A DNA stretch of 62,416 nucleotides from NCBI GenBank assembly GCA_023473585.1, contig JAMCYU010000008.1:1-62416 (forward strand), given 5' to 3'. Shown piece after piece: positions 4,936 to 60,583 of the stretch (the first letter of the stretch is position 1; every line of letters starts with the position of its first letter). A model generated the notes under the pieces. That model had not been told where the DNA came from, ran no database searches, and saw only the letters and a list, made by a program, of their open reading frames with translations. A program made the position numbers and the translations under genes. The stretch comes from Patescibacteria group bacterium. Lineage in GTDB: Bacteria; Patescibacteriota; Microgenomatia; JAMCYU01.

Positions 4936-4948
4936 ATTTATTATTTTA

Positions 4949-36510: not shown

Positions 36511-36542
36511 GTTTCTATCGTAACATTTTGAAAAATTAAAAG

Positions 36543-39280: not shown

Positions 39281-39827
39281 TCTTTAACTCAACAGTTAAC
39301 TGTGGCGTCTTTTTAAACAAAATCCCTTTCATGCCTAAATTTATTGCGGCTTCAAGTTTTATTTTATCGTCATCAATATAAAGACACTCTCTTGGTATTA
39401 CCCCAAGCTTTTGACAAATAAGAAGATAAATTTCCGGGTCTGGTTTCATAAGTCCTGTCTCTCCCGAACAAATCATCATATCAAAGTACTTATCAAGGGA
39501 AAATCGGTTAACCGCATCTTCGAGAAAAGCTTTCGGACAATTCCCTAAAAGTCCCAACTTGTATTTCGGCCTTAATTTTTTAACCAAAGACAATATTCCT
39601 TCTACCGGAATGCTTTGTAAGTAATATTCTTGCCGTGTTTTTTCCTCCCACTTTATATCCTTTCCTAATTCCTGTGCCCATTTTTGCCAAAATTGTTTTT
39701 CCGAAGTTTCTCCCCGCCAAAAAGGCTGCCATATTTCCAACGATAAAATCTTTTCCCTTTTAACAATTGGGTTTAGACCGTTTTTAATGATGGTGTCGTG
39801 GAAATCAAAAATTATCGCTTTAATCAT
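39264..39827 (-). CDS. HAD-superfamily hydrolase
   Basis: IIFDFHDTI (DxD) and YIDDD. Confidence 0.8.
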   Translation of the reverse strand: MIKAIIFDFHDTIIKNGLNPIVKREKILSLEIWQPFWRGETSEKQFWQKWAQELGKDIKWEEKTRQEYYLQSIPVEGILSLVKKLRPKYKLGLLGNCPKAFLEDAVNRFSLDKYFDMMICSGETGLMKPDPEIYLLICQKLGVIPRECLYIDDDKIKLEAAINLGMKGILFKKTPQLTVELKNEKYL

Positions 39828-40870: not shown

Positions 40871-41747
40871 TGAGGTTTTTTGTTGATTCCACCCTGTCCC
40901 AAATAGTGTGCTTATTTTTTTGAAAATGATAATCATAAGTCCCGAGGATTCTGGCCATCATTTCCAATAAAGCCACGGCTGGCGACCAGATTAAATATTT
41001 AAAATCAGGCTTTAAAACTTTTACCCAAGCAAGAAGAGTTTTTCTTAAACCTAAAGTAGAAACTTGATAACCTTGAATTTTTTTTAAAGCTAAATGGCCG
41101 CTATAGATTCTTCTTCTTTGCTTCATAAATTCGAATAAATTCTCTGTCCCTTTATTTAAAACAATCGCGTCGGGAACGTATTTAAGAGTGTACCCTTGAC
41201 CAACAATTAAAGGTTCAACCGTGGCTTCGTCAACGGCCGAAGCGTAAGGAATTCTTTCAAAGATTTTCCGGTAAGCCACCATCTCCCCCATTTTTGGGGA
41301 CATTAAAGCCACTTGGTGATGAAGCTCCCATAAAAGGTGGGCGGCAAAACCAAAGAAATGATCTTGAGGGTCTGAAGGAATCGGCCGGGCTCCGGTCATC
41401 CCGATTCTTGGATTGGAAAATGGCCTTGCCAATTTTTCAATTACATCCTCCTGTGGAATCGTGTCCGCCCCGGCGCAAACCACAATTTTCCCTTTGGCAT
41501 GTTTTAGAAATAAATTAACGGCCGAAGATTTCCCCAAACGTTCTTTTTGAATCAAGAGTTTGATTCTTTTGTCGGTTTTGGCCAGGCGTTTAACAATGGG
41601 AATTGTCTTGTCAGTGCAACCAGAAGCCACGACAAATATTTCCTTAATCTGGGCTTTATTAAGTTCTTGTGACAGTATGGCCTCAAGGCAACGGGCAATG
41701 TTTTGTTCCTCGTTGTAAGCCATCACGCCGATACTTGCTTCAATCAT
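40860..41747 (-). CDS. Family 2 glycosyltransferase (soluble, ~295 aa)
   Basis: IGVMAYNEEQNI and CAGADTIP. The start MIEASIG makes an ATGA overlap with the upstream stop. Confidence 0.85.
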   Translation of the reverse strand: MIEASIGVMAYNEEQNIARCLEAILSQELNKAQIKEIFVVASGCTDKTIPIVKRLAKTDKRIKLLIQKERLGKSSAVNLFLKHAKGKIVVCAGADTIPQEDVIEKLARPFSNPRIGMTGARPIPSDPQDHFFGFAAHLLWELHHQVALMSPKMGEMVAYRKIFERIPYASAVDEATVEPLIVGQGYTLKYVPDAIVLNKGTENLFEFMKQRRRIYSGHLALKKIQGYQVSTLGLRKTLLAWVKVLKPDFKYLIWSPAVALLEMMARILGTYDYHFQKNKHTIWDRVESTKNLNVV

Positions 41748-44494: not shown

Positions 44495-44502
44495 TTTAGT
44501 TT

Positions 44503-47247
44503 TTAAGAATCCTCATCATTTAACCAGGTTTTCGTTTTAACAGAAAGCGGTTTTTGCATCCTGCCGAGAGCGATTTTCATTTTTTCCGCAGGAAATAAAT
44601 TAAAAAGAGAAAAAATCAAAAATAAAATTGACAAAAGGGTTAAAGCTAGCCCCGCTTGTACGGCTAAGCCTTGAGTGTATTCAAGCGTCACCTTAAGAGG
44701 ATATTGGCTTGTTTTGGGTAAAGAAGCGTACATCATTCCCGGCCCGGCCAACTCTAAATGTAAATTGGTTTTTTTATTTTTACCATCTAATGCGTAAGCT
44801 TTCCAGCTCGGATAATAGCTTTCTTTAAACAAAACTCCCGCGGCCCTTTCCGAAATCAAAATTTCTCTTTTTTCGGGATTTATAAAAGCCGCTTGAGCCG
44901 AATTTGGTAAACTCGCCGCCGCAAAATCCGTAAAAAATTGCCTTAAAAGTTTGGCTTCTTCAAAATTTTTATAGGCATTGGTGTGGTAAAGAAAATTAAA
45001 ACTTGTCCAGACAATTTTACCCTTACCGTATTTTCCGGACACGACGAGCGGTCCTTGTTTTGAATCTAAAACCACTTTTGCCCAAGGTTTTAAATTGCTT
45101 CCCTTGGCCATTTTCCACGGCGCTCCGTTATAAAGCGGCGGCGAAAAAAGGGTTAAATCAACATCGTTAAAAAAAGGACTTTCCTGTTTTTGAAAATCCC
45201 AAGTTCCCTGAATTTGGTTTCTGTTAAGAAGAGAAAAAGGCGAAGGTTCGGGAAGATCTTTCGCTGTTCCCTTTTCGTTTAAAAGTTCCGGCGAATCCCA
45301 GGCTTCCCATAAAATATTTCCTCCTTCATTTAAATAATCGGTTAGAATTTTATAAGCCCTTTTTTGATCGCGGTAACGATATCCGAACAAAACCAAGCTC
45401 GTGTAAGCTTTAAAATCTTTAGCGGTGTAGTCATCTAAGTAAAGTTTGCCGCGGACCGGAATTAATTTTGAACTATTGTAATTAGTAAAAGTCAGGTTAG
45501 TAAAAAGAAGGTTGTAGCTTTTGGGATCGCCGATATAAAGCACTGTCGGCGCGCTGGTGGCAGAAAGAATCGGGCCGGGGTTTTCAACCTCAAATTGTTC
45601 CTGAACTCCGTCATAATGCACTCGGCCGTAAGAAACGAGGTTAAAACCAGATTCACGAAGATAACGATTTTGGCTTGCGGCCACAAAATCGGCCGCTGAC
45701 TTTCCCCCGCCGGCGCCATTATAAGCTTCATAATCGGAAATATCTTTACTTCTTTCGTAAGTTGAAAACCAGCGTACCGCAAACCAATCTAAGGCCGACC
45801 TTGCTTCGTCAAGCGAAAACTTTTGGTTATCCCAAAGAGCCTGTTCAAACCAATAGCGCCAATCAGGATACAAAATTCCTTGTCCGTAATAATCTCTTAC
45901 TTGAGGAATCTTGTAAAGGGTATTAAACCAAACGGCCTCGTCGGCGTCAAAAGCGGCGAAACGGTGGTTAAAATCTCCTGCTTGGGGAAATTTCAGAATC
46001 CGCTGCAGTTTATAAACGGCATTTTGGGGAATATCGGCACTCGTATCGTTAATATTGATTTGGCGATCGTCCTTTTTAATTAGGGGAACACCGACAGCCA
46101 ACGTTGACCCCCAAACAACCGCTATTAAAAGAAAACCAATTAGGGGCAAAACTCGTTTGGCTGTTGGTTGCAGCCGCGCCAGCAAAAGACCAATAAGAAT
46201 ACTCCCGTAAAGAGTCATAAAAAGAGTCGCGGAAAGAGGAATAAACCCGTTAATATAATAATACTTTCCCGAAAGACCCGTGTACCCAATCAAGGCATAA
46301 GCGGAAAAAAGAAGAAACATAACAAGCGGAGCAAAAATAAGTCTTAAAAGACCAATTTCGCCTTCAGGTTTTAACCGTTTTAAAAAACCCAAAATCAAAA
46401 CCACCGCTAATAAAGGTAAAACAAACGGCCCCATACCGGCAAAATCAATTAAATAATAAAGCGGAGCCGGCACCACTGGAGAGATAACACCGATAAAGGT
46501 CGAGGCGCCTCCGGGGCTTAAAAATAAAGGCAGAAAGAAAAATCCAGCCACGGAAAAAGAAGACAAATAAATTAAAAAACCATATTTTATTTTTTTCTTT
46601 AAAGGAAAGACTGAAACAAGAATGAGGAAAAAAATGGCTATCCAAATAAAAAGCCCCATCAGGGCGTGGGTGGTTAAGGCCGCTCCCAGAGCTAAAGCTG
46701 CCGCCGCAAATTCCTTCCTCGGAAAAGCTTCTTTACTTTCCGCCGCTTTTAGAAACCTAGCTGTGAACCAAAAAGCAATCAGGGAAAAACCCACCCCCAA
46801 AATTCGAGGGTAAATACCGCCGGATAACATCCATGACCAAAGACTAAAAGAAGAAAGCGCTAAAATCGCGGCAAACAACCCCCAAAAAGGTTTTCGGGTT
46901 TGCGTCAAGACAAAACCAAAAACTCCAATCCCGATGGCCGCGTAAGCCAAAAAACCAAGAATAATCAGGCTGAAAAAAGGACTGCCCGAAAAGATTTTGG
47001 CAATAATGGCGCCCAAGAAATAAAACAAAGGCGCTTCGGTTTTAAAAGTCGGCATTCCGTCGGCCCAGTGATATTGCCAAAAGACATGAGGAAAAAAATC
47101 TAAAAGATAAACTATCCGTGTAATTCGGGCGTAAGCATCCGCCCCCTTAGGGAAACCCGTAAAAGTTTCCAGTTGATATCCGTAAAGAGCAACCACGAAA
47201 AGAATCAAAATAAAACAGAAAATAAGAACAAATTTTTGTCTATTCAT
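44503..47247 (-). CDS. GT-C/YfhO-like paralog (914 aa)
   Basis: Same architecture as the 916-aa protein: GADAYAR loop, IPQVRDYYG, and the tail WLNDEDS. Confidence 0.55.
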   Translation of the reverse strand: MNRQKFVLIFCFILILFVVALYGYQLETFTGFPKGADAYARITRIVYLLDFFPHVFWQYHWADGMPTFKTEAPLFYFLGAIIAKIFSGSPFFSLIILGFLAYAAIGIGVFGFVLTQTRKPFWGLFAAILALSSFSLWSWMLSGGIYPRILGVGFSLIAFWFTARFLKAAESKEAFPRKEFAAAALALGAALTTHALMGLFIWIAIFFLILVSVFPLKKKIKYGFLIYLSSFSVAGFFFLPLFLSPGGASTFIGVISPVVPAPLYYLIDFAGMGPFVLPLLAVVLILGFLKRLKPEGEIGLLRLIFAPLVMFLLFSAYALIGYTGLSGKYYYINGFIPLSATLFMTLYGSILIGLLLARLQPTAKRVLPLIGFLLIAVVWGSTLAVGVPLIKKDDRQININDTSADIPQNAVYKLQRILKFPQAGDFNHRFAAFDADEAVWFNTLYKIPQVRDYYGQGILYPDWRYWFEQALWDNQKFSLDEARSALDWFAVRWFSTYERSKDISDYEAYNGAGGGKSAADFVAASQNRYLRESGFNLVSYGRVHYDGVQEQFEVENPGPILSATSAPTVLYIGDPKSYNLLFTNLTFTNYNSSKLIPVRGKLYLDDYTAKDFKAYTSLVLFGYRYRDQKRAYKILTDYLNEGGNILWEAWDSPELLNEKGTAKDLPEPSPFSLLNRNQIQGTWDFQKQESPFFNDVDLTLFSPPLYNGAPWKMAKGSNLKPWAKVVLDSKQGPLVVSGKYGKGKIVWTSFNFLYHTNAYKNFEEAKLLRQFFTDFAAASLPNSAQAAFINPEKREILISERAAGVLFKESYYPSWKAYALDGKNKKTNLHLELAGPGMMYASLPKTSQYPLKVTLEYTQGLAVQAGLALTLLSILFLIFSLFNLFPAEKMKIALGRMQKPLSVKTKTWLNDEDS

Positions 47248-49321
47248 CTTCGTCTTTATCCTCCTCCCATTTAGCTTTGGCTTGTTTAAAAAGCCCGTTT
47301 AAACGCTTCGTTAAAAAGGGGTAAGCGATAAAACCAATAACCGTCATGATCGTTAACAAATATCCCAACCAAATATCCCCAGTTTTATGCCAAGTCAGGG
47401 TAATTTCCATGTTTCCCGTTGCCTTTGGTTCCAGTAACATAAAACCTAACGGGTCTTTTTTGATCGCAATCTTTTCCTGACCGGAAAAAGCCTGCCAGCC
47501 GCTACTGTAAGGAATCTGCAAAGCAACCCCTTCTTCTTTATCTAAGTTGGCCGTAATTTTGGCTTGACCATTTTTAAACCAAGTAAAATTAGCCTCCGGC
47601 AATTTGTTGTTATCGATATAAATTAAATAATCTTGTAAGGCTGAATAATCAACGGCGTTTTTTAATGGTTTTAGGTTAACAAAATTCGTTTTGCTGACAA
47701 CTTGAGCGAGTGACGGCTGAACCAAGGGTACTTTATAAATCACATCCCCTTTCAAGTCAATTATTTTCGTTAAATCAGGGTTTTCGGTGAACCTTTCGAT
47801 TTTTTTAAAATCATGGAAAACCTCCGAAGACTGAGGAGTATTCACCACCAAATAGGAAACATTCAAAATTCTCAGCCAAGAGAGGGCGATTTCCGCTTCT
47901 TTTCCTAAAGGCGCGTTTTCTCCGGTGTTAATTTGATAAATCGCGTGGAGAACCCAAGGATTGGCCAAACCGTCATTGCCACCTCTGACCTGAGGGACGT
48001 CGAAAAAAGTATTCAGCCAAAAAGCGGTCGAACCGGAAGCATAAACCCTTTCTCCGTCAGTGTTATTTTTAAGCCAAGAGGCAATTTTATACTCCGAGGT
48101 TTGCTCAATTGCCTGGTGAGGTTGCGTTAAATTCCAAACTTGGTTAATATATCTTAATGGCAAATAGAGTATCAAAATAGTAATTAGTGTATATAAAATT
48201 CCTTTTGCCCAGACCAATTTCGGGATGATTTTTTCAATTAAAAGAAAAATTCCCCAAGAAAGAAAAAGAGCCATCCCCATGTCCATTTCCGGAAGATAGC
48301 GATTTGGTTGAGGTAAAAGCATGACTTCCTTGGTGAACCAAAAATAAGCGGAGGAGAAAAACAAAACAACCCAAGTCACGGTTATCAACGGTAGTTTCCA
48401 ATTTTCTTTTTTAGCCGCAAGGGCGAAAAGAAAAACTAAAGGAATCAATAAAAAAATAAACGGTAAAAAACGAAAATACACCTCGCCTAAACTGCCACCC
48501 GCTCCCCCGGTCCCAATCGAGAGGCTGGCTTTCATAAAAGAAAGGTTATACCAAAAACTGACTAAACCAAAACTGTAAAAAACAAGAAGGAAAGATCTTC
48601 CCGCTTTTTTCTGCCAATCCTGACCAATATCTTCAATGATAAAAACGGTCATCAGCATCATCGTCAGTCCCATTAAAGAGATCATGTTCGTTAGAGCGAC
48701 AAAAGCGATAAAAATACTGGCCATTAAATAATTTCGCAAATTACCCTGCCGAAGGGTTTTAAAAGTAAAAAGAATCGCCAAGGGCAGAAAGAATAAACCA
48801 ATAATGTGCCCGCCTTCCCCATATAGAATCATGGTTAAAAAACGCCATGGGGCAAAATTGTGAGCTTCAGCCGTTCCGGAAAGTCCCGGCATTAAATATC
48901 CGACGGTGGGCGCGAAGGCAAAAATCATGGCCGATAAAAAACCGGCGGCCGTATTCTTGAGAAGATAGCGAACCAGAAAATACACGCTAATCGGCGTCGC
49001 CGCGTAAAAAAAGCCGATCAAAATCCGATACCATGATTCAAGAGGAATTGAACTAAAACAGGCGTGGAGCAAAACCATTAAGTATGGCAAAAAGGGCGTA
49101 TAAAATAAATGAAACGGGAAACCCGTATACCAATAAGGATTCCAGGACAAATTGGGAAAATTTTCCGCGATAAAGCGGGCGTCGGCAATAAAAACACTTT
49201 CAATTGACCCCATTTGGCTGGTATAACCGCCGCTAAAAAGCGGCCAAATCAGCATCGCGTTAACCGTAAAGAGAAAGAGCGGAATAACCATCAAGGAAAA
49301 TAATAATTTGATTATTCTCAT
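47240..49321 (-). CDS. GT-C/YfhO-like paralog (693 aa)
   Basis: Same architecture: VPQVRGGNDG and the tail KWEEDKDEDE. Confidence 0.55.
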   Translation of the reverse strand: MRIIKLLFSLMVIPLFLFTVNAMLIWPLFSGGYTSQMGSIESVFIADARFIAENFPNLSWNPYWYTGFPFHLFYTPFLPYLMVLLHACFSSIPLESWYRILIGFFYAATPISVYFLVRYLLKNTAAGFLSAMIFAFAPTVGYLMPGLSGTAEAHNFAPWRFLTMILYGEGGHIIGLFFLPLAILFTFKTLRQGNLRNYLMASIFIAFVALTNMISLMGLTMMLMTVFIIEDIGQDWQKKAGRSFLLVFYSFGLVSFWYNLSFMKASLSIGTGGAGGSLGEVYFRFLPFIFLLIPLVFLFALAAKKENWKLPLITVTWVVLFFSSAYFWFTKEVMLLPQPNRYLPEMDMGMALFLSWGIFLLIEKIIPKLVWAKGILYTLITILILYLPLRYINQVWNLTQPHQAIEQTSEYKIASWLKNNTDGERVYASGSTAFWLNTFFDVPQVRGGNDGLANPWVLHAIYQINTGENAPLGKEAEIALSWLRILNVSYLVVNTPQSSEVFHDFKKIERFTENPDLTKIIDLKGDVIYKVPLVQPSLAQVVSKTNFVNLKPLKNAVDYSALQDYLIYIDNNKLPEANFTWFKNGQAKITANLDKEEGVALQIPYSSGWQAFSGQEKIAIKKDPLGFMLLEPKATGNMEITLTWHKTGDIWLGYLLTIMTVIGFIAYPFLTKRLNGLFKQAKAKWEEDKDEDE

Positions 49322-50724
49322 ATTGATTGAATGGTTAAAAAGGCTTTAATTTTCCGATTTAAATCGGATAGACCTCTTATTTGTCCCAGTTGCCTCAAAA
49401 GAAATTTTGGCTGGCGATAAAATTCCCGATACGCTTTTTTTTCGTACGCTTGAACTGTTTGCGCGTTCAAACCTTCAGGTACATAATAAAGATGGTTAGG
49501 CAGATTTACTAGAAGTCTATCATAAGCAACGTTTTTTAAAAAACTGCGTTTCTTGGCCTCCTGCCAAAGTTTTGTTCCCGGGTAAGGCGTCGCGATCGTA
49601 AAATTAGCCACGGATAAGGGCAGGCTTTTAGCAAAATCAATTGTCTCCTGCATGGTCTTTTCCGTTTCCCCGGGCAAACCTAAAATAAAAAATCCCAAAG
49701 CCTGAATTCCAACCCTGGTTGTTTCCCCAACCGCCTCCTCTACCATTTTTTTGGTGATGCCTTTATTTAAACTTTTCAAGATTTCCTCATTTCCCGATTC
49801 AATGCCGTAGGAAATCTGCCAGCAGCCGGCTTTTTTCATCAAACGAAACATTTCCCCATCCGCTTTATTCACCCGTCCCAAACAAGTCCAAGTAAATTTC
49901 AACTTTTTTTTAAAAATTAAACGACAGATTTCTTTAACCCGATCCGTATCCGCGTTAAAGGTATCGTCCCAAAGACGAATTTCCTTGGCGCCATATTTGT
50001 TAATCAGAATTTCCATTTCCGAAACGACACTTTCAGGGCTTCGGAAGCGCCATTTATTACCAAAAACGCCTCGGAAACAAAAATTGCATTGGTATGGACA
50101 ACCGCGGCTGGTAATCATTGTCCCCACCGGAAAATTTTGATAGGTTGCCGGAGTCGGATGATAGGCTGATAAAGAAGGCATTAAGTGCCTGGCCGGAAAA
50201 GCAATTTGGTCAAGATTCTCAATGTATGCTCTTGGGACGGTTTTGATAACTTTTTTTCCTTTTCGGAAAACAATTCCGGCGACCTTGCTAAGATTGCCCT
50301 TATTAGTTAAAACCTGAATAAGCTCGACAATCGTCTGTTCACCTTCACCAATGACCCCAACATCAAAACAAGAAAATTTGGCGACCTCCTTTGGCATTGC
50401 GGTCACATGAGGCCCGCCGATAATAACGAACGCTTTCTGAGATTTTTTTAATGCCCTTGCTAGTCTGACAGCCTTATTAAAATCAACCGTTGAAGCAGAA
50501 AGACCGATAAAGTCCGGCAACAACCTTTGCGCCTCGGCAACAACCTCTTTAATCCCCCAACCCAGCGGTGGAGCGTCAATAATTTTAATCTCAAAGCCCG
50601 CTTTCTCCAAAACCGCGCCAAGATAACCAATACCAAGTGGCGGCTGCATGTTTCCCACCTCTGCCAGAGAACTGAATTCTTCTTTTAAACTGTAGGGAGG
50701 GAAAATGAGTAAAACTTTAGTCAT
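49318..50724 (-). CDS. B12-binding (class B) radical SAM enzyme, second copy
   Basis: VLLIFPPY..PPLGIGYLGAVL and SRGCPYQCNFC. Confidence 0.85.
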   Translation of the reverse strand: MTKVLLIFPPYSLKEEFSSLAEVGNMQPPLGIGYLGAVLEKAGFEIKIIDAPPLGWGIKEVVAEAQRLLPDFIGLSASTVDFNKAVRLARALKKSQKAFVIIGGPHVTAMPKEVAKFSCFDVGVIGEGEQTIVELIQVLTNKGNLSKVAGIVFRKGKKVIKTVPRAYIENLDQIAFPARHLMPSLSAYHPTPATYQNFPVGTMITSRGCPYQCNFCFRGVFGNKWRFRSPESVVSEMEILINKYGAKEIRLWDDTFNADTDRVKEICRLIFKKKLKFTWTCLGRVNKADGEMFRLMKKAGCWQISYGIESGNEEILKSLNKGITKKMVEEAVGETTRVGIQALGFFILGLPGETEKTMQETIDFAKSLPLSVANFTIATPYPGTKLWQEAKKRSFLKNVAYDRLLVNLPNHLYYVPEGLNAQTVQAYEKKAYREFYRQPKFLLRQLGQIRGLSDLNRKIKAFLTIQSI

Positions 50725-51403
50725 TTTCGACGACGAAAAAGAAATTCATCCCAAAACAACCTCTTTTAAGTCTTAAAATCTTACCTTGGTTGTTAAAAAG
50801 AGCTTGAACCTCCCTTTTTTTAAAAATTCGATGATAAGGCTCTCCCGGGTGGGTTGATGATAAAAACCGAAGATGCCAAATTGGATTTTGAGCTGGAACC
50901 GAGCCGATTAAAATCCCCTTTGGGGTTAAGACACGAAGGATTTCTGATAAAGCTTTTTGAGGATGAATAAGATGTTCTAGAACATCAGTGCAAATTACCG
51001 CCTTAAAAGCTTGGCCGGAAAAAGGCATTTTTTCGATATCTCCAAGGACTAACTTCGCCTGGGGAGCATGAGTTTTAGCCCGGCGAAGATTTCGAGGGTT
51101 AATGTCAAGACCAATTGAATCAGGAGGCAAATGGCGCAGAATTAAACCTGTACCACAACCAACATCAAGAAACTTACCTTCCTTTCCAAATTCTTTTACC
51201 AATTTTAAAGTCTCCCTTTCTCTTAGACAATGAAGAATCGTCTCCAGACCCCGAAATCGGTTAGCCACCTCAACCCAATCATAGTCTTCTAATTCTTGAT
51301 AATATCGCTTATTTTCTTTAACAAACTTTTCTGTCGAAATATCGACAGTAAGCCCGTTTTTTGCACAAAATTTCCAATTAACAAATCTCGCTTTTCTCTT
51401 CAT
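50717..51403 (-). CDS. Class I SAM-dependent methyltransferase (228 aa)
   Basis: LDVGCGTGL..GLDINP..GDIEKMPF. Confidence 0.8.
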   Translation of the reverse strand: MKRKARFVNWKFCAKNGLTVDISTEKFVKENKRYYQELEDYDWVEVANRFRGLETILHCLRERETLKLVKEFGKEGKFLDVGCGTGLILRHLPPDSIGLDINPRNLRRAKTHAPQAKLVLGDIEKMPFSGQAFKAVICTDVLEHLIHPQKALSEILRVLTPKGILIGSVPAQNPIWHLRFLSSTHPGEPYHRIFKKREVQALFNNQGKILRLKRGCFGMNFFFVVEND

Positions 51404-51457: not shown

Positions 51458-52723
51458 TCATCCATTTTCGCCTTTGGCGAATTTTTGGCTTAATTTTAAG
51501 GTGCTTAAAATTAAAACGGTTGCTGACGAAATAACTATCCCGATGATTTGAGAAAATCCCCCACCGTCTCGGACTAATTGTGCCCCCAAAACTTGGTTAG
51601 AACTCTCAAGACGGTTGGTAAATTGCGGCCGCACGAAAAATACCGAAATAACCAAAAAAGATAAAAGAAAACTGATCCAGCCGTAAAAAATAGGACTCAC
51701 TCTCTCCTTTTTTTCTTTTGGGAATTTTGGAATAAACGGAAGAAGGCGTAAAAAGACACCGGGATTAGTTTTTAAAACCTCGGCAATAATGACCAAAACA
51801 ACGGCGAGAAAAAAAGAAAAGCTGAAATAAAACTCCGGCAGGAAACGATTCGGAACCGGTAAATAAGTCGTACTAATACTGGGCGCCACATAAATAAGCG
51901 TAAAAAACACTAAAAAATGACTCAAGCTTAAAAAAATGGCTTGTAAACTGGGCTTTCGGTCAAAAATCAAAAAAGAAAGGGCACCCAAAACCGGGACCAA
52001 AAAGAACGACGGCGGGATGAGATTCAATAGAAGTTTAACGAGTGCTTCTCCGTGCTCGGCTTGAAAAATTTTGTAAACAAAGCTCGGGTGATACCAAAAA
52101 CTGGAAAGGCCGGCCGCGGCGATCAGAATCATTAAGGTCGACAGCATTTTAAACCGGCCCAAACCTAAAAGCATCTCCGAGTAGGTCAGTAAGCCCAAAA
52201 AGATTAATAAGGTAAAAAGACCGAAAGGACTGGTTAAGGCGACCAAAGCGACTCCAACCGCCGAAACCAAAAGCAAACCAATGGTGGGATTGCGTAAAAA
52301 ACGCAGATTGAAAATTAAAACGATGGGCAAAATCGTTAAGGAAACCAGATGCGCACTGTCGCCAACGGCAACCGTATCATAAAATCTGGAGGCTGACAAA
52401 GTGTAAATTAAGCCTGCTAAAAGACTGATTAAGCGTCTATTGGTAATTTCCCAAACATAAAAATATAAAGAAACCGGTCCAAAAATATAGGCGCCGAAAA
52501 TTAAAAACTTTAAAATTTCTTCTCTGCCTCCGGCAAGAAAAGGCAAAAGAGGCGCCGTGAATTTGCTAAAGGGCAAGGTCTTGTCCATGAGTGGCCAAAT
52601 CAAAAAAAGATTGAGGATTAAAACAAGAAGGGGCAAAACCAAGGTATGCAAATTTAAACTGATGCGGGGAGCGGCTGGGGTTGACAATTTTGCATGATTA
52701 CTTAAGCGTCTAAAAAACCGCAT
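51458..52723 (-). CDS. Polytopic membrane protein resembling the TM half of the GT-C-like paralogs (421 aa)
   Basis: More than 10 TM helices and no ectodomain. Confidence 0.6.
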   Translation of the reverse strand: MRFFRRLSNHAKLSTPAAPRISLNLHTLVLPLLVLILNLFLIWPLMDKTLPFSKFTAPLLPFLAGGREEILKFLIFGAYIFGPVSLYFYVWEITNRRLISLLAGLIYTLSASRFYDTVAVGDSAHLVSLTILPIVLIFNLRFLRNPTIGLLLVSAVGVALVALTSPFGLFTLLIFLGLLTYSEMLLGLGRFKMLSTLMILIAAAGLSSFWYHPSFVYKIFQAEHGEALVKLLLNLIPPSFFLVPVLGALSFLIFDRKPSLQAIFLSLSHFLVFFTLIYVAPSISTTYLPVPNRFLPEFYFSFSFFLAVVLVIIAEVLKTNPGVFLRLLPFIPKFPKEKKERVSPIFYGWISFLLSFLVISVFFVRPQFTNRLESSNQVLGAQLVRDGGGFSQIIGIVISSATVLILSTLKLSQKFAKGENG

Positions 52724-53064: not shown

Positions 53065-53685
53065 TTAACCTATTTCTTTCTTTGACAAGAAGGTTTTTCT
53101 CTTCCCCATTGATATTTTACCTCCCTCATCATTTTTCTCTTCCAACACATAAGAGTAACTAAACCACCAAAAGAAAAACAACCACAAGATTAAAATAATA
53201 ACCGAGGAATAATCATGGATGACCGTCGCCGGAACCCCTCTTACATAAACGATCAAAATCGCTACTAAACTGATTCTTAAAATATTAACAAGGATTGTTC
53301 CTAAAATTCCTATCATGGCACATTCGATTTTTGAAACCTTCGTATAGGCTCCCTGTAAACCAGTTGCTAGGGTTAGCAATAAAACTAACATTGATTGCCA
53401 ACCTAAACAATTCCAGGAAATGATGATTTTTTCCCAGACGCCGTTTTTTAAAATACTGATACTGGTCGCCGAAGCGCTTGCCTGCTGTCCCATCGCCCCA
53501 AGAAAAACGACAATCATCCGTGTTTCCAGGGGTAAAATAAAACTTTCAATCAGCCGATACCAACCCATCTTTAAGAAAATCGAGGTTAAAAGTTCGTTAA
53601 AAGTTGTTAGGAAAGGTAAAAGCAATAAGAAAATCGCCAAGAGACTAAAAATCGTTAGAAATGTTGCCTTAGGATTCCCCTTCAC
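53065..53685 (-). CDS. Exosortase/archaeosortase-family protein (short form, 206 aa)
   Basis: Polytopic. The candidate catalytic Cys/Arg/His contexts are WNCLGWQS, VNILRISL and VIHDYS, in the order expected for the family. Confidence 0.6.
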   Translation of the reverse strand: MKGNPKATFLTIFSLLAIFLLLLPFLTTFNELLTSIFLKMGWYRLIESFILPLETRMIVVFLGAMGQQASASATSISILKNGVWEKIIISWNCLGWQSMLVLLLTLATGLQGAYTKVSKIECAMIGILGTILVNILRISLVAILIVYVRGVPATVIHDYSSVIILILWLFFFWWFSYSYVLEEKNDEGGKISMGKRKTFLSKKEIG

Positions 53686-56208
53686 CTAATTACCTCCGAT
53701 TTGTTGATTTAACCATTGATTGGTCTTATCAATTTGGTATGCCAAACGGTATTCCTCAAGCGCCCTTAACGTCTCACCCCTGGTAAAATACATCTTCCCC
53801 AGGGTTACATGTTGACGGAAAAGAAAATATTTATTATCCGTCTTTGGTCTTAAGTCTTTCATGGCTTCGATATTTTTGCTCGTGGTCGCCTGATAAAGAC
53901 TTTTTGGGGCGGAAAACTCTAAAAAAGGGTGGTTGTCGGTATTTTCTTTGGCTCCCTGAATAAACTTAACTATGCCTTCTTGACCCAACGCTAAATAGCT
54001 TAAAAACTGTTCGGCACTTTCAATGAAAATCCGCCCAAATTCATTTTTGATAAGTTTCTGCTCTAATTTCTGGCTGATTAAATCAGCATCTAAATTTATC
54101 GGTTCCTGACTGCCCAAGAGCAGCAAATCGTAAGAAGAAAGATTGTCCCAAACAGTAGTATAGGGAAAAACCGATTGAAAAGTCTTAATCTCCGTTTTTA
54201 AATCGTCTGTTTTAAGACTGTAAAGTTGAATCCAGTGGGCAAAAATGCCACCCTTATTAAGACGTTTTTTCGCCAACTCAAAATACTCTTTGGTGAAAAG
54301 TTTAGAATTTCCCGACAGCCAAATATTCGAAGGTTCGGAAGTAATCACATCGTATTTTTCCGTTCCTTTCAAAAGATAATTTCTACCGTCCCCTGTCACC
54401 ACTTTTAGTCTTTGGTCTTCTATGGCCCGATGGTTTACCTCACTGAAATATTTATTGGCTTCAATAATGGCTGGTTCAATTTCCACCGCCTCGATATTTT
54501 TGGCCGGAAATTGTTCAACAGAACCTAGGGTTATCCCTGATCCTAACCCAACCACCAAGACATCTTCTGGATTAGGATGTAAGATCATCGGTAATGCTCC
54601 TGAGAGAACCTGTGTGTCAATATCCAAACCGGTTGAAGCATCGGTTTTCCCGTCAATGCGCAAAAAAACCTGCGCCCCGAGTTTTTTAACGGCCACTGTT
54701 ACCTCAATCCCTTCCCGATAATAAAGAAAGTCGGAGCCCTGCATTCTTTTTTCGGCTTGCTCTTGGCTGTCTTGGATGAAAAAACGCCAATTGGCATATG
54801 GCCCGGAAACTAAAAAATGTTTGTTCCATAATGGCCATAAATAACCAATCAAAAGAATGACTAAGATAACAAAAGAGATCAAAATTCTCGGAAAACTTCG
54901 CTTGTCTTTGACAATAAGCCAAACTGCCAAAAAAAGATAAATCGCTGCCATCAGCCAAATTCCCTTCTGGACGCCGATTCGAGGAATCAGGAAAAAACCG
55001 GCTAATAAGGAACCAAAGACGCCTCCTAGGGTATTAGCCGCGTAAAGACTGCCGACTGACCAACCGACTAATTTTTCTTCTTCCTGATAGAATTTAATAC
55101 CCAAGGGCAAAAGCAAACCCATAACCAAAGTCGCCAGAAACATAAGAAAAAAGGAAAGGATAAATTGCCAAAAAAGAATCGACCCAAAAGAAGTGTAGCT
55201 GGTTTTGATTATTTCCAAAAGGAAAAAGGGTATCTTTTCAAAAAGAGGGATGCTAAAGATTATCCATGTGCCTAAAATCGCTAAAAAAACGGCCAGCCAA
55301 ATTTGGCTAAATTTCTTTCCCCATTGGCGAAAAATAAGACTCCCGATGGCAATCCCTAATAAGAAACTGACTAAAACCGTCGCAAAAGCATATATCGAAG
55401 CACCGAAAAATAAAATTAAAGTTCTCGTCCAAAAAACCTCCATGGCCAAACCTGCCAAACCAGTCAGGAAAAAAACTCCCAAAAGAAAATAATTTGTGTG
55501 AAGACTATCAGGGACTATGTTCGGCCGCTTGCCAGCGATTTTTCTGTCTTCACTTGATACTTGATACTTACTACATAATACTAATATCGTGATACCGATA
55601 ATTAAATTTATACCCGCGGCCAGCCAGATGGTTTCACGAACGCCCAAAAAAGCAATCAGAAAAAACCCGGCTAAAAAAGCCCCCATGACGGCGCCCAAAG
55701 TATTGATAAAATATAAAAAACTTACCCCCTCCCCTATTTCCTGATCTTTAAGAAGAAATTTCGCGATCACCGGCAAAGTTCCACCCATCAGGATTGTTGG
55801 TAAAATCAAAGCCAAAAAACTTAAAAGAAATGTCAAAAATTGAAAACCATAAAAAGATGAACCGATATTTTGGCCAACAAGAACCTGCAATCTTTCGACG
55901 AATTTAAAAATTAAAGGAGTTAAAAAAGCATATAAACCTATTCCTAATTCTAGAAATGCGTAAAGTTTTAGGGAATTCTCTTTTTGATCGATAATTCGGC
56001 CAAAAAAAAAGCTGCCCAAGGCTAAACCGCAAAAAAAGATAGCCAAAACAGAAGCGGTTGCGTAAGCAGTTGTCCCGAAAACCAAAGCCAGCTGCCTTTG
56101 CCAAACAACCTGATAGGTTAGGGCGCAAAAACCGGAAAGGAAAAAGAAGAGAACCAAAAGTCTTCGTAAGTTAATCATCGTAATTATAAACTTATAACAA
56201 CTTGCCAT
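53686..56208 (-). CDS. Fused polytopic membrane / spermidine-synthase-like / TPR protein (840 aa)
   Basis: ~14 TM helices, then VLVVGLGSGITLG and DVITSEPSN (aminopropyltransferase/MTase fold), then TPR-like repeats. An alternative start at M11 (56178) would remove the overlap. Confidence 0.75.
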   Translation of the reverse strand: MASCYKFIITMINLRRLLVLFFFLSGFCALTYQVVWQRQLALVFGTTAYATASVLAIFFCGLALGSFFFGRIIDQKENSLKLYAFLELGIGLYAFLTPLIFKFVERLQVLVGQNIGSSFYGFQFLTFLLSFLALILPTILMGGTLPVIAKFLLKDQEIGEGVSFLYFINTLGAVMGAFLAGFFLIAFLGVRETIWLAAGINLIIGITILVLCSKYQVSSEDRKIAGKRPNIVPDSLHTNYFLLGVFFLTGLAGLAMEVFWTRTLILFFGASIYAFATVLVSFLLGIAIGSLIFRQWGKKFSQIWLAVFLAILGTWIIFSIPLFEKIPFFLLEIIKTSYTSFGSILFWQFILSFFLMFLATLVMGLLLPLGIKFYQEEEKLVGWSVGSLYAANTLGGVFGSLLAGFFLIPRIGVQKGIWLMAAIYLFLAVWLIVKDKRSFPRILISFVILVILLIGYLWPLWNKHFLVSGPYANWRFFIQDSQEQAEKRMQGSDFLYYREGIEVTVAVKKLGAQVFLRIDGKTDASTGLDIDTQVLSGALPMILHPNPEDVLVVGLGSGITLGSVEQFPAKNIEAVEIEPAIIEANKYFSEVNHRAIEDQRLKVVTGDGRNYLLKGTEKYDVITSEPSNIWLSGNSKLFTKEYFELAKKRLNKGGIFAHWIQLYSLKTDDLKTEIKTFQSVFPYTTVWDNLSSYDLLLLGSQEPINLDADLISQKLEQKLIKNEFGRIFIESAEQFLSYLALGQEGIVKFIQGAKENTDNHPFLEFSAPKSLYQATTSKNIEAMKDLRPKTDNKYFLFRQHVTLGKMYFTRGETLRALEEYRLAYQIDKTNQWLNQQIGGN

Positions 56209-59200
56209 TTATTTTAATGACTGCCAAATGAATTTGCAATCGCCTTTTTTGCCACCACTCGATCACCTTAGGCAAGAAGATCGCCATCGGTATAAAAAGC
56301 AGGGCTTTTTCCGGCGCTGCCGGAGCAGTAACTTCGTAAGTTATAAAAGCAGTAAGTCCGCCAAGTTTATCCACATTAACCGGGAGATCAATATTCATGT
56401 AATATGCCCTTATATTTCCACTAAGACCTGTTCCTGACGAAGCTGCTAGATTTGATGCATCCTGAAAAGTGGAAACGCTAAGGTTCTCTCCCGTTGTCTG
56501 ATTTAGAGGACCATACCCAACAGTATCGGCCACTTGTACAAAAGCATACGTCGCACTCGTATAGAAAATTTCGAAATTTCCTTCAGCTCCTGATGAACGC
56601 TTTGTCGTCGAAGATTCGGGAATATAAGTATTAAATGTAAAACTTGGATCAGAAGTGCTTTTTGCCGTTTCTTGCCCAACAAACCAATTCACCGTTTTTA
56701 TACCCGTATATGTACCGCTTGTAGGAATTACGAAGTTATAAGAAACAATTAGTTCCGCTCCTACCGCATAAGTCTCATTAATTTTATCTCCTAAAGCTTC
56801 AACCGTCACCGTGTCCCCGGTTTGCCAATTAGTACTAAAGTTACTGGAAATATCAATAAAAATCACATTTCTCCCTGCTTGTTGGGTGACTACTGTTGCG
56901 TAATAAGTACTCGCCGAAGGATATTCGACTGCTGTGCCACCGGTTATTGTTACTCGGTAACGCGTGTTAGCCGCAGCTGTGTTTGTCCCCACAATTTTTA
57001 AATAAGCATTGTAATTGGAGAGTGAGCTTTCGGGTAAATAAACCGCTGGTGCGCCGATTTGAGTATAAGTTATAGGTAAAGCTCCGCTTAGCTGACCAAC
57101 ATGATATTTAGCCGTATTGCGATGAGTTGTACTTGTTTGGTTGTAATAACTATAAGTATAGGTAATAAGCAGTTCTCCCCCCTTAAGGTTCATTACCTGC
57201 GCGTTATTATAAGAAATGATGGTGTTAGAGGCTTTGTAGTTTAATTGACCAAGAGCAGCTCCATCGGCCACAACTCCTACCGGTTCGTACATGGCGACAA
57301 AATCCATTGTTGTTTTGTTGGCTCCGTCTATAAAAGTAAAAACTGCCGAAGCGCCTCCAACCGGCAATATTTTTGGATTTGTAATTGGCTGATTGTTATT
57401 TATTTCTCCTCTAATTTGAGCGTCTGTTGTACCAGCGGAAACTTGACCAACATACTCCACCCAGGCCTTTTGGATAGTGATATTGGCCTCTTGCAGATTG
57501 GGATTAAGTGTACTTGTCAAAGTATCAGTCGAACCCGAACTAGATTGACTATTCTTGGTTTGTAAGGCGTATCTGACGGTTTTTACTTGCGTTGTTACCG
57601 TATCATCATATTCGTAAGTCACGATTAATTTAGCAGAATCAGTATTGTGAGTTTGGTTAACATAGGCGTTAAAATTATAAGTATTATTTCCTTGAGCGAC
57701 CTCGCTGGTTACATCCATACGAATAATAAAAGGTTGACTTTCACCAGAGTTTGTATTTATAGTGGTAAGTGATTGAGTTATGAAACTGTTAGTTCCCCGA
57801 CGGAACTTCATCTCACCGGCCGTTACATTATTAGCCGAAAGAATAAACCGCCATTCAACATAAGCATGACAGGGATTCGTCCCGGTAGTTCCGGTTAAGC
57901 AATCAACCATTGTTTCTGGAATATCTAAAGAAAATTGCGGCCCATTGGAAGAACTATAAGTTCCGGCATCAATCCCTTGAGTAGCCGTAATATCCGTTGC
58001 GCTGGCATATTGATAAATTGGCATTTCAATGGTCTTAATTTGGGTCCCCGGGGAAGCAAGGGCAAGAGGAACTTTGAAAGATAGCCAAGAAAGGTTCATG
58101 GATAAAATCAAAAGTACAGCTAGGGTAGTTTTTGCCAGCCACCTGATTTTCCTGCGCCTGATGGTAAAATGACCAAACCGGTTATTGGCTGTTTTTAAGG
58201 CCAAATAGGGATTGGAGCTGGAAATTAGATATGGTAATTGGGAATTAGTTTTTAATTCTTGAGTGCTTAATGCTTCATGCTCCATGCTTAATGAAGGTTT
58301 AAATCCCGGCAATATCCCTGAAATCCATCGGTAGAATCTCCCTCGTTGTAGGACATCGGTAATCATGCCTGTCTTGGGGGTTCTAAACCAAGGCCCTTCT
58401 TCTTTTTCGATAAAGCCCTTAACCGAGGCGTAGGCCTGAAAAGGAACGAGAAGATAAGAAAGTACCACAAATGAGAGTATCCCTAAATAGTCTTTCTCCT
58501 CACTCTCCTCCAGGAAAAGACCCACGGTATTGACTAGGGGTAAGGAGAACATGTTGGTTAAAACCAGAGACCAACCCCAAAGAGCCGTCCAGAAAGGGAG
58601 CCTGGCTTTAAAGATGGCTTCAGAGACAAACCAGCAAAAGGTCCCCAAAAGAAAAAAGGTGGCCTGGAGATAATAGGGAGACATAAAGAGAAACTCAAGT
58701 TTCTCCATGTAGGTAAGGTTGGAAGAACCTAAGAGTTTACCAAACATTTTCCTAACGTTAAAGGAATGACCCTCGGCCCAACGCATCCGCTGGCGGACTA
58801 ACCTCTTGATCGTCGAGACACATTCGGCCGGACCTTGAATGTAAGGAGTGTAGATGACCTTGTAACCCTGTTCGTAAAGACGCAGGGTTAGTTGGAAGTC
58901 TTCGGTAATTGAGGTTAACCAGCCGAGCTTTTTTAAGACATCCATCCTGATCATATAGACAGAGCCGGCGATCTGCTTTAAACCCCCGTAGACCTCGGCC
59001 CCTGACCTCTCAACGACATAAGATCCCGCGTACTCGCTTCTTACCCCCCTCGTAATCCAGTTCTCTGATTTGTTAAGAACGTGCCACTGGTAACCCTGGA
59101 TGGCCGCAACGGGTGAGTTTTGGTTCCTCCCTTGGTGACTAAATTCCTGATTCCTAATATCAAAGTTAAGTGTTCCGCAGACCGCTTGGAAGTACTTTAA

Positions 59201-60583
59201 GAATTGGGTGATGGTGTCAGGATAAGGCACAAAGTCGGAGTCAAAAACCAAGACAAACTCGGTTCTTGGGTCGGTAATCTTCATCGCCTCTTTAAGGGCC
59301 CCTCCCTTGTAGCCTTCCCTTGATTCCCGGTGAATAAGTTTGACTTTGGGATGATTCTTCCAGTCCGCAAGAATACTGGTGGTTTCATCATTGGAATCAT
59401 CAATAACGATAACCTCGTAGTTTTGGTAATCCATACTGGTGCAGGCCGAGAGAAGTCTGTTAACGACCTTCTTCTCGTTATACATGGGTAAATGAATGGA
59501 AACAAAGGGAGATCTTTGGAGAATCACTCCTTCTAGGTTGGGTTGTAATCCACCAACATATCCTTTCCGCAGACCAGAAGCACTATCTAAACCAACAAAC
59601 CTAAAAAGAAATCTCATCAACCACGACCGCTTCCTCGTTCCTGATTCCTGATTCTCTCCTTCTTGTCCGATATGACGAGAGAACCCTAAGACTATCGCCA
59701 AGGTTAAATAGTATTTAAGCGAGTAAAGGAAGAAAACCGAACCGGAAAATAAAGCGATTGAAGCAAAGATTAAGCCCAACTTATTCTCTTGAGGAACCTG
59801 ACTATAGATCCTCAACCAAGCTAAAAGAAGATAACTTATAGGGGCGGAAAAACCGAAGCCAAAGAAGAAGGACTTAAATATATTTTTAAAATTTGGCGGT
59901 GGTGCTGGTGCCAAAGAAGGCATAAAGGCTTCAAAAACCGTTCTGATTCTATTAATATTGGCGGTCGCAAGTTGAACAAGGGAGTTTGAGGTATGGGTTT
60001 TAGCGTAAGCAAGGCGCTGACAATAATAAGACAGGTTAAATCTTCTCAAGATGTTTTGCACGCCATGATTGCCCAAAATTGGCTTACCATTTATTTGAGG
60101 TAAACAAGCAACGATTTTATGCGTTGAAAGCTCTGGATATTTAATGACTAGTGTCAAAATTGTCTTTTCAACTAGCCGGGGAGTTTGATGATAATATTTT
60201 TCTCTTTTGGGAATTTTATCCCAGAGAGCTCCCGTTTTTTCTCCAAGCGGAGCCTGCTCATAACGATTTTTCCAACGATAAAAGATCGTACGGGAGATAC
60301 CGTATTCTTGACAAATTTCGGCCACGGGTTTACCAGTAAGTTTTTTTTCGATCGTCGCTAGCCGCTCTTTTGGAGAAAGCAGTTTTCTGGGGATTTTCGC
60401 ATTGTGAAAAAGCGGTTTAAGTGAACTAATTTTAAGGTTATTTTCTTTATATCTTTTTAACCATCGGTAAAAAAGAACGCGGGAGATTCCGGCTTCCCGA
60501 GCAAGCCTAGTAGCTTCTTCATTTTTATTTAAGAAGCGCTTAATAAGACTTAATCTTTGTTTTACAGTCAGTTTAGCTCTCAT
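56192..60583 (-). CDS. Fusion protein: two transposase-type HTH domains, a processive GT2 (QxxRW), a ~640-aa Thr/Ser/Asn-rich ectodomain and a C-terminal TM anchor (1463 aa)
   Basis: One continuous ORF. HTH motifs: GISRVLFYRWLKRY and GISRTIFYRWKNRY. GT2 motifs: LPMYNEKKV, VIDDSND, FDSDFVP and RQRMRWAEG. The C-terminus is APAAPEKALLFIPMAIFLPKVIEWWQKRR. Confidence 0.8.
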   Translation of the reverse strand: MRAKLTVKQRLSLIKRFLNKNEEATRLAREAGISRVLFYRWLKRYKENNLKISSLKPLFHNAKIPRKLLSPKERLATIEKKLTGKPVAEICQEYGISRTIFYRWKNRYEQAPLGEKTGALWDKIPKREKYYHQTPRLVEKTILTLVIKYPELSTHKIVACLPQINGKPILGNHGVQNILRRFNLSYYCQRLAYAKTHTSNSLVQLATANINRIRTVFEAFMPSLAPAPPPNFKNIFKSFFFGFGFSAPISYLLLAWLRIYSQVPQENKLGLIFASIALFSGSVFFLYSLKYYLTLAIVLGFSRHIGQEGENQESGTRKRSWLMRFLFRFVGLDSASGLRKGYVGGLQPNLEGVILQRSPFVSIHLPMYNEKKVVNRLLSACTSMDYQNYEVIVIDDSNDETTSILADWKNHPKVKLIHRESREGYKGGALKEAMKITDPRTEFVLVFDSDFVPYPDTITQFLKYFQAVCGTLNFDIRNQEFSHQGRNQNSPVAAIQGYQWHVLNKSENWITRGVRSEYAGSYVVERSGAEVYGGLKQIAGSVYMIRMDVLKKLGWLTSITEDFQLTLRLYEQGYKVIYTPYIQGPAECVSTIKRLVRQRMRWAEGHSFNVRKMFGKLLGSSNLTYMEKLEFLFMSPYYLQATFFLLGTFCWFVSEAIFKARLPFWTALWGWSLVLTNMFSLPLVNTVGLFLEESEEKDYLGILSFVVLSYLLVPFQAYASVKGFIEKEEGPWFRTPKTGMITDVLQRGRFYRWISGILPGFKPSLSMEHEALSTQELKTNSQLPYLISSSNPYLALKTANNRFGHFTIRRRKIRWLAKTTLAVLLILSMNLSWLSFKVPLALASPGTQIKTIEMPIYQYASATDITATQGIDAGTYSSSNGPQFSLDIPETMVDCLTGTTGTNPCHAYVEWRFILSANNVTAGEMKFRRGTNSFITQSLTTINTNSGESQPFIIRMDVTSEVAQGNNTYNFNAYVNQTHNTDSAKLIVTYEYDDTVTTQVKTVRYALQTKNSQSSSGSTDTLTSTLNPNLQEANITIQKAWVEYVGQVSAGTTDAQIRGEINNNQPITNPKILPVGGASAVFTFIDGANKTTMDFVAMYEPVGVVADGAALGQLNYKASNTIISYNNAQVMNLKGGELLITYTYSYYNQTSTTHRNTAKYHVGQLSGALPITYTQIGAPAVYLPESSLSNYNAYLKIVGTNTAAANTRYRVTITGGTAVEYPSASTYYATVVTQQAGRNVIFIDISSNFSTNWQTGDTVTVEALGDKINETYAVGAELIVSYNFVIPTSGTYTGIKTVNWFVGQETAKSTSDPSFTFNTYIPESSTTKRSSGAEGNFEIFYTSATYAFVQVADTVGYGPLNQTTGENLSVSTFQDASNLAASSGTGLSGNIRAYYMNIDLPVNVDKLGGLTAFITYEVTAPAAPEKALLFIPMAIFLPKVIEWWQKRRLQIHLAVIKINGKLL

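Follow-up and report, generated by a model that had tools for sequence, protein, structure and literature searches.

The window analysed here is a stretch of 62,416 nucleotides (contig JAMCYU010000008.1, assembly GCA_023473585.1) from an uncultured, ultra-small Patescibacteria group bacterium of the Microgenomatia, and the gene in question is a mini exosortase/archaeosortase-family gene (positions 53065-53685, minus strand) that encodes a 206-amino acid (aa) protein of an unnamed Patescibacteria subfamily. This protein is most likely a minimal polytopic cysteine endopeptidase or transpeptidase with Cys93, Arg137 and His157 as its presumed active site, and the dedicated partner of a 1463-aa protein (the giant) in which a family 2 glycosyltransferase (GT2) synthase module is joined to a predicted ectodomain. 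We consider it likely that the mini-exosortase processes the C-terminal tail of this giant, which is encoded two genes upstream, and by analogy the two most likely work like a PEP-CTERM or PGF-CTERM sorting pair. The evidence comprises family membership, an invariant catalytic triad, a conserved tail, gene adjacency, co-diversification of sortases with tails, and natural fusions.

On sequence criteria, the 206-aa protein belongs to the exosortase/archaeosortase superfamily, in a subfamily without a curated model, because it passes the curated cutoff of the NCBIfam superfamily signature (TIGR04178, 27.2 bits; cutoff 23) and because its Cys, Arg and His are invariant among homologs. The same cutoff was passed by 43/43 sampled homologs (best E = 1.1e-11), in agreement with the exosortase/archaeosortase-like identity that an earlier sequence-only reading of this DNA had proposed. 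Some homologs are labelled ‘exosortase/archaeosortase family protein’ by JGI or NCBI, and public annotation stops at this generic family name; PF09721 (Exosortase_EpsH) is precomputed on many of them, and one fusion protein described below (P0198) scores 35 bits on it (cutoff 25.7). None of the named Xrt/Art subfamily models (CrtC, ArtC, XrtX, XrtM and others) was approached by the 43 sampled homologs (best E = 9.4e-9). The window protein scored 17 bits on the XrtG model TIGR03110, far under the cutoff of 102.75, and 21 bits on the CrtC (cyanoexosortase C) model, which has a cutoff of 225. Weak matches to the XrtG model were obtained for 16/43 homologs (best E = 2e-5), and ArtC was among the best sub-threshold matches of family members (20/43, best E = 9e-9); we take that model to be the archaeosortase ArtC with its PEF signal. 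A search of 5.8 billion proteins returned 264 homologs, mostly of about 180-200 aa, and the 120 listed among them share 41-99% identity; those with a named source are all from Patescibacteria or Microgenomates. A HMMER scan of 1.84 billion cluster representatives (clusters at 50% identity) gave 526 family clusters at E ≤ 1e-3, 80 of them at E ≤ 1e-30.

All three motifs singled out by the sequence-only reading, with Cys, Arg and His in the contexts WNCLGWQS, VNILRISL and VIHDYS, are present in the protein, and conservation of these residues among homologs, which it had set beforehand as a test, proved complete; its other test, the score on sortase-family models, likewise came out in its favour through the TIGR04178 result. 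In the family alignment W91, N92, C93, G95, Q97, S98, N134, R137 and H157 are invariant in 121/121 sequences and D158 is kept in 119-121 of the 121. The presumed nucleophile Cys93 lies in WNC[LI]GWQS (codon 53407-53409), Arg137 in N-x-x-R (codon 53275-53277) and His157 in H-D-Y (codon 53215-53217; all minus strand). Hydropathy analysis gave 5-6 hydrophobic segments, as in a deeply membrane-embedded polytopic protein, and the AlphaFold model is confident (predicted local distance difference test, pLDDT, 84) and mostly helical with one beta-hairpin. A profile search of PDB sequences returned no solved relative below E = 0.1 and a Foldseek search of the model against PDB none below E = 0.5, and the active-site assignment is therefore a sequence-based one. 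A six-pass topology with both termini inside (N-in/C-in), which would place Cys93 and His157 at the outer ends of helices, fits the distribution of charges (K6, K39/R44, K116/K119 and a Lys-rich C-terminus).

The candidate sorting signal of the giant is its C-terminal PE-x tail (aa 1420-1463; 56195-56326, minus strand), which consists of APAA-PE-K with Pro-Glu at 1424-1425, a hydrophobic stretch (1427-1444, with FLPK), K1446-R-R and 15 extra residues. The window tail reads APAAPEKALLFIPMAIFLPKVIEWWQKRR. In the sequence-only reading the C-terminus (...ITYEVTAPAAPEKALLFIPMAIFLPKVIEWWQKRR) had been quoted as a short motif, a hydrophobic helix and a basic cluster; this tripartite signal is real and was correctly quoted, except that KRR is followed by 15 more residues, LQIHLAVIKINGKLL. 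The ITYEV taken there as the sorting motif is the last strand of ectodomain repeat 4, and the conserved motif is P1424-E1425. The same tripartite design is found in related giants, with the tail APQAPEKALMLLFVAPFLPKIVEWWRRKYLQ in locus L001, AIVPEKLLALLGFGPFLPLFLRRRKRKNND and IIIVPERLLALLGPGFLFPLFLRRKRKGNG on the two giants of L003, and YIIIPEFLWLFLPLGPFLPLILRKRKT in L005. Among the GT2 open reading frames (ORFs) of more than 900 aa with a complete 3' end in related loci, 34/35 have a C-terminus made up of [VI]-P-E-x, then a hydrophobic helix with PFLP, then a cluster of Lys/Arg, and the sole giant without this tail looks frameshifted. Counts anchored on the motif gave Pro in 33/35, Glu in 34/35 and a preceding Val/Ile in 30/35, with a variable third position at which the six commonest residues are Asn (10), Lys (8), Ala (6), Arg (5), Ile (3) and Phe (2), Pro not being among them. 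The motif is followed by about 16 hydrophobic residues with the conserved Pro-Phe-Leu-Pro and then by at least 6 Lys/Arg; relative to the motif, the profile is hydrophobic from +4 to +17 and Lys/Arg-rich from +18 to +26. In signals cut by membrane-embedded sortases (PEP-CTERM, PGF-CTERM) no spacer separates the motif from the helix (10.1101/2023.06.07.544157), and the PE-x motif of the Patescibacteria giants likewise abuts its helix directly. Tails were present in 54/98 large ORFs that end no more than 3 kb upstream of a mini-exosortase gene vs 16/356 other large ORFs, several of these 16 being further GT2 giants. Within the window, the tail occurs on the 1463-aa protein only.

Related loci were collected by a scan of GTDB species representatives, which gave 240 relatives, and 78 of the loci were fetched (about 80 loci and about 1 Mb compared in all). 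Across these Patescibacteria loci, the GT2 giant usually lies directly upstream of the mini-exosortase gene. Giants with helix-turn-helix (HTH) and GT2 domains take this position in L001, L003 (two pairs) and L005-L007, and the sortase genes of three diverse homologs follow giants of 1575, 3807, 2509 and 2642 aa, one contig having two pairs. Several genomes carry more than one mini-exosortase copy, and where there are several, each has its own giant. When 56 sortases were clustered, the groups matched the tail subtypes (IIVPE; TTVPENP; NWxYIIIPE; SSLQ[IV]PE with LPK; FEFATVPE; and APxAPEK with FLPK, the type of the window), and in L051, where two pairs occur in one genome, the sortases group by tail type and not together. 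Two giants of one tail type occur in L073 and in L043, each with one sortase gene found within the fetched locus. Stand-alone tail bearers without a GT2 module adjoin the sortase genes of L026 (410 aa) and L075 (417 aa); other tail bearers of this non-GT2 kind, considered as independent substrates, turned out to be mostly pieces of split giants, and only these two look like genuine stand-alone proteins.

Some features of the surveyed records are reported as side observations. In L025, L033, L048, L051, L057 and L063, two or three consecutive ORFs (e.g., HTH, GT2 and ectodomain) take the place of a single giant gene; possible causes are errors of assembly, decay to pseudogenes or frameshifts by which surface-protein genes could be switched. 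Where the title of a locus names a lineage, it is mostly Woese-, Curtiss-, Gottesman-, Davies- or Chisholmbacteria. About twenty loci (L013, L018, L023, L032-L034, L043 and others) bear the record title ‘uncultured Gammaproteobacteria bacterium’ and two the title ‘Bathyarchaeota/Bathyarchaeia archaeon’; these titles on a Patescibacteria-type pair probably reflect mislabelled or mis-binned metagenome-assembled genomes.

In two relatives, P0198 (946 aa) and P0229 (1227 aa), synthase, ectodomain, tail and sortase are found in one chain. Both have the order GT2, signal-like helix, ectodomain, ..FPIEVPEN, helix, basic stretch and sortase domain, the last with the motifs DWNC[AS]GWQ, NVLRI and FH[ND]Y. 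Locus L087 holds the parts as separate genes. It encodes P0123, one of the three homologs of the window ectodomain, which stands alone and has both an N-terminal signal peptide and a tail of its own (..YWVPTLGWPLLILLILFIGYMLVRRR; a transmembrane (TM) helix plus RRR). The P0123 gene overlaps that of a 205-aa XrtG-like sortase (TIGR03110, 85.5 bits; TIGR04178, 45 bits), and downstream are genes for an XrtG-type GT2 (TIGR03111, 252 bits), a PTPS_related membrane protein (PF10131, precomputed), a B12-binding radical S-adenosylmethionine (SAM) enzyme and another GT2. A PTPS-related membrane protein is part of the XrtG neighbourhood. BLASTP of the window mini-exosortase against the L087 sortase gave no significant match. 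As judged from these gene products, L087 is the window gene set in unfused form. The sequence-only reading had named the C-terminus of the GT2 fusion as the best candidate substrate, and five lines that we count as independent speak for it: adjacency, the tail in 34/35 giants, the co-clustering of sortase clades with tail subtypes, the single-chain fusions and L087. Its overall interpretation, a sorting system with a non-canonical signal, is thereby largely borne out.

As an observation on the surroundings of the ectodomain homologs, small genes for ‘23S rRNA intervening sequence protein’ (PF05635) flank the stand-alone homologs at L086 6514-6888 and at L087 888-1262 and 3922-4287, and these are two unrelated contigs.

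The giant itself (56192-60583, minus strand) comprises two HTH domains, a processive GT2 synthase, a signal-like TM helix, a four-repeat ectodomain and the PE-x sorting tail. Its N-terminal region (aa 1-200; 59984-60583, minus strand) holds two transposase-type HTH domains (Pfam HTH_28, HTH_23, HTH_29 and HTH_Tnp_1). The fusion of HTH domains to a membrane GT2 synthase recurs in many related giants and is therefore not an artefact of ORF calling; it puts a DNA-binding domain on a polysaccharide synthase. Two or three hydrophobic segments were seen by hydropathy at aa ~239-301, and with two TM helices there the GT2 module would stay cytoplasmic. This module (aa 355-700; 58484-59521, minus strand; PF00535, PF13641 and PF13632) carries the motifs DDS, DSD, TED and QRMRW, which are typical of processive beta-glycan synthases; it is PgaC/CelA-like below threshold, and it scored 24 bits on TIGR03111 (XrtG-associated GT2; cutoff 364). 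C-terminal of the module are further helices, then a conserved cytoplasmic motif, EGPWFRTPKTG, and then a linker.

Between the linker and the ectodomain lies an internal signal-peptide-like segment (aa 806-843; 58055-58168, minus strand), with RRRKIRW, a hydrophobic core and PLALA in the n/h/c layout of a signal peptide and with a predicted signal-peptidase site at A843/S844; it reads RRRKIRWLAK-TTLAVLLILSMNLSWLSFKVPLALA/SPGTQ (the slash marks the predicted cut). An [AVSTGC]-x-A site within 17 residues past the hydrophobic core was found in 30/40 distinct giants, against 16.4±2.9 in random ectodomain windows used as a control, of which 0/2000 samples reached 30. In a BLASTP comparison with the stand-alone protein P0121, the helix falls on the N-terminal signal peptide of the latter (PLALA/SPGTQIKT vs PQAQA/APGTQIKT), and the giant and P0121 match overall at E = 2e-52. 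Signal peptidase I probably detaches the ectodomain from the synthase at this site, and the need of a polytopic protein for a C-terminal sorting signal would then make sense. The ectodomain (aa 844-1419, 576 aa; 56327-58054, minus strand) has four repeats of ~150 aa that open with ..Q[IV]KTV.. and close with ..L[IL][VI]TYEY, and is Thr/Ser/Asn-rich and acidic. It is almost an orphan, with only three detectable homologs in 5.8 billion proteins. N-glycosylation sequons are not enriched in it (10 observed vs 10.1±2.7 in shuffles). Across lineages the ectodomains diverge widely, with a range of about 0.5 to 3 kb of protein, as would be anticipated of proteins exposed at the surface.

We propose that the giant would insert in the membrane with its HTH and GT2 modules facing the cytoplasm, and that one N-in/C-out helix (aa 820-843) would export the 576-aa repeat ectodomain, the far end of which would be re-anchored by the C-terminal PE-K/hydrophobic/KRR segment with its basic cluster inside the cell. 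After the probable cut by signal peptidase I behind PLALA(843), the ectodomain would be held by the C-terminal helix alone. The mini-exosortase would then recognise PE-x at the outer membrane face and cleave there with Cys93, Arg137 and His157, and the new C-terminus could be passed to a lipid or glycan acceptor, by analogy with ArtA/PGF-CTERM. One acceptor candidate is the polymer made by the linked GT2 synthase. A more specific form of this idea, to which we give only a small chance, is that the sortase joins the ectodomain C-terminus to the nascent polysaccharide of its own GT2 module, or to an amine-bearing acceptor from the neighbouring protein related to the major facilitator superfamily (MFS) and spermidine synthases; the locus would then be a self-contained protein-glycan conjugate machine, possibly making a Microgenomates surface layer, and the single-chain forms would process themselves in cis. 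Exosortases are named for their linkage to exopolysaccharide loci, and such a conjugate, if real, would give this long-noted linkage a direct mechanistic reason.

Three other accounts of the pair were weighed. The enzyme may be a plain hydrolase that cuts off the PE-x tail, so that the ectodomain is released into the extracellular matrix and not joined to any lipid or glycan. Everything that points to recognition of the tail is equally compatible with this account, no acceptor-making gene is universally conserved beside the pair across the ~80 loci, and for ArtA and rhombosortase it is unsettled whether removal and attachment take place in one step (10.1101/2023.06.07.544157). We nevertheless regard simple shedding as unlikely: sortases use this Cys/Arg/His triad for transpeptidation, the known relative ArtA removes the C-terminal helix and attaches a lipid, giving a lipid-anchored product (10.1101/2023.06.07.544157), and the close linkage to a polymer synthase hints that the product is kept at the cell surface. 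A different division of labour, in which each mini-exosortase serves many PE-x proteins across the genome as a general sorting enzyme, as in classical PEP-CTERM systems, and the giant is merely the nearest of them, finds support in the two stand-alone bearers of L026 and L075 and in the scope of the survey, which covers loci and not whole genomes. Against it stand the restriction of the tail to the giant in the 62-kb window, the finding that nearly all bearers in ~1 Mb of related loci are GT2 giants or their fragments, and the pairing of multiple sortase copies per genome each with its own giant, and we accord it a low probability. Most improbable in our view is that the tail is only a permanent membrane anchor on an uncut giant, the sortase homolog having a structural or regulatory part in the synthase complex or acting on something else. 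Cleavage of the giant is predicted from sequence, the window tail is an imperfect signal, and in P0198 and P0229 the tail is simply the helix that joins the ectodomain to the sortase domain; a plain anchor, however, has no need of a near-invariant Pro-Glu at the membrane boundary, a triad invariant in 121/121 argues for catalysis, and sortase clades co-vary with tail subtype.

For the preferred reading, in which the mini-exosortase processes the tail of the giant, several points weigh on the other side. A Pfam search of the 206-aa protein gave no match, PF09721 included (none at E ≤ 10). The window tail is atypical in its weak hydrophobic core, which is interrupted by Lys1439, and in the 15 residues after its basic cluster, and the regular expression used for the tail counts was composed after examples had been viewed. 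In an NCBIfam scan of five tails, no curated C-terminal sorting model matched; the only hit was a sub-threshold Heimdall-CTERM (15 bits; cutoff 24), and the PEP-CTERM model (TIGR02595) gave none at E ≤ 10, a search in which HMMER filters may drop very weak short matches. The compared sequences are phylogenetically related, and adjacency and co-clustering therefore derive in part from shared descent of neighbours. The substrate survey covered the fetched loci, and further substrates may lie elsewhere in the genomes. The outward position of the triad was reasoned from the charge distribution and not from model coordinates; cleavage and transfer as such, like the cleavage site, the signal-peptidase processing and the acceptor, are steps that we infer.

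Among known systems, the closest by gene content is the XrtG system of Firmicutes (XrtG TIGR03110, a Firmicu-CTERM protein and GT2 TIGR03111). Both have a sortase of ~190 aa in a dedicated small system adjoining processive GT2 glycosyltransferases, and L087 bridges the two, with an XrtG-like sortase beside a substrate homologous to the window ectodomain. Firmicutes with XrtG and Patescibacteria both belong to lineages generally held to be without an outer membrane. The window system differs from XrtG in the low score of its sortase on TIGR03110 given above, in its PE-x tail without a Firmicu-CTERM match, and in the fusion of its substrate to synthase and HTH domains. With PEP-CTERM/XrtA of Gram-negative exopolysaccharide producers it shares a [VI]PE core that abuts the TM helix, a basic cluster, linkage to polysaccharide loci and the Cys/Arg/His enzyme family, whereas the third motif position is not Pro in Patescibacteria (Asn, Lys, Ala, Arg and others), the Patescibacteria sortase has one or very few substrates instead of dozens, an outer membrane is presumed absent in the window lineage, and the enzyme is ~190 aa long, in contrast to exosortases with at least 8 TM helices (10.1101/2023.06.07.544157). 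ArtA/PGF-CTERM, which acts on the Haloferax S-layer glycoprotein, and ArtC/PEF-CTERM resemble it in having a dedicated sortase and a large surface (glyco)protein; by contrast, the window family is far under the ArtC cutoff and bacterial, its substrate is fused to a GT2 synthase, and lipid attachment is hypothetical here.

Our literature search found no paper that links exosortases to Patescibacteria or the candidate phyla radiation (CPR) and, among the papers listed, none that treats sortases together with Patescibacteria, Microgenomates or CPR; the only papers in which exosortase and ‘candidate phyla radiation’ occur together concern hot-spring viruses. The subfamily, the PE-x signal, the fusion of the substrate to an HTH-GT2 synthase, the apparent internal signal peptide and the all-in-one fusions appear to be undescribed. 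With substrate and synthase in one polypeptide, and the sortase too in some relatives, the system would be a minimal pair of one enzyme and one substrate, in which cleavage site, acceptor and polymer coupling are accessible to test. It also names a candidate major surface protein and anchoring route for Patescibacteria, the cell-surface biology of which is little explored, and subfamily models for the sortase and the PE-x tail would improve the annotation of several hundred protein clusters.

In the window, a fused MFS/spermidine-synthase-like protein of 840 aa (53686-56208, minus strand; NF037959, 136.8 bits, cutoff 40) is encoded between the giant and the sortase. This fusion is restricted to the clade of the window (4 of ~80 loci) and was rejected as a core component on that count. 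The 840-aa gene starts 17 nt inside the 3' end of the giant gene (56192-56208, minus strand), and its TAG stop (53688-53686) abuts, in the same frame, the GTG start codon of the sortase (53685-53683, minus strand), which has a ribosome-binding site, GGAGG (53693-53697, minus strand; read from sequence), 7 nt before it within the 3' end of the upstream gene. By virtue of this ribosome-binding site and of the abutting and overlapping genes, the three genes are tightly coupled and probably co-translated. It is also observed that the TAG-GTG junction (53683-53688) and the 56192-56208 overlap suggest translational coupling, and that read-through of the stop codon would yield a fusion protein.

Downstream of the sortase, the genes for a 421-aa polytopic protein (51458-52723, minus strand; no family match) and a 228-aa SAM methyltransferase (50717-51403, minus strand; Methyltransf_11) are conserved neighbours, with relatives in 25 and in 23 of ~80 loci, respectively (22-23 loci for SAM methyltransferases as a class). 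P0137 is a natural fusion of a mini-exosortase with Methyltransf_11. They are followed by a B12-binding radical SAM enzyme of 468 aa (49318-50724, minus strand), a kind of gene also present in L087, and by three paralogous polytopic GT-C-like giants of 693, 914 and 916 aa (41744-49321, minus strand), which we list as accessory enzymes. The 914- and 916-aa proteins have weak PF10131 (PTPS_related) matches; the 693-aa type of polytopic protein occurs in 40 of ~80 loci and a partial 329-aa type in 37. These giants were considered as substrates and rejected, since a PE motif is absent, the TM helix is followed by a long acidic tail (20-30 residues with acidic ends, no Pro-Glu), and paralogs elsewhere show this architecture too. 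Their (I/V)T(L/Y).(Y/W)-TM-basic ends, to which the sequence-only reading had pointed, are for the same reasons not a sorting signal, and its caution that the similarity may only reflect paralogy was well placed, paralogy or domain architecture being the better account.

Some minor features of the operon and the window are added. The operon has two Methyltransf_11 methyltransferases (50717-51403 and 37940-39280, minus strand), and two B12-binding radical SAM enzymes (HpnJ/BchE-like, sub-threshold) and one SPASM radical SAM enzyme (36543-37997, 39824-40936 and 49318-50724, minus strand); the radical SAM set, with the B12-binding radical SAM enzyme of L087, hints at an unusual lipid, glycan or protein modification. 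The distal end of the gene string encodes a 366-aa protein (35446-36546, minus strand) that combines a dCache_1 sensor domain outside the cell with a TM helix at its C-terminus and may serve the surface system as a sensor. Three small paralogous ORFs stand in tandem at 3261-3749, 3894-4331 and 4477-4971 (minus strand; 162, 145 and 164 aa), the last two ending in an identical ..SPPVSTKDIAREILKQL and the first in a similar ..PPLSAQNIAEEILSKVYHTDKKI.

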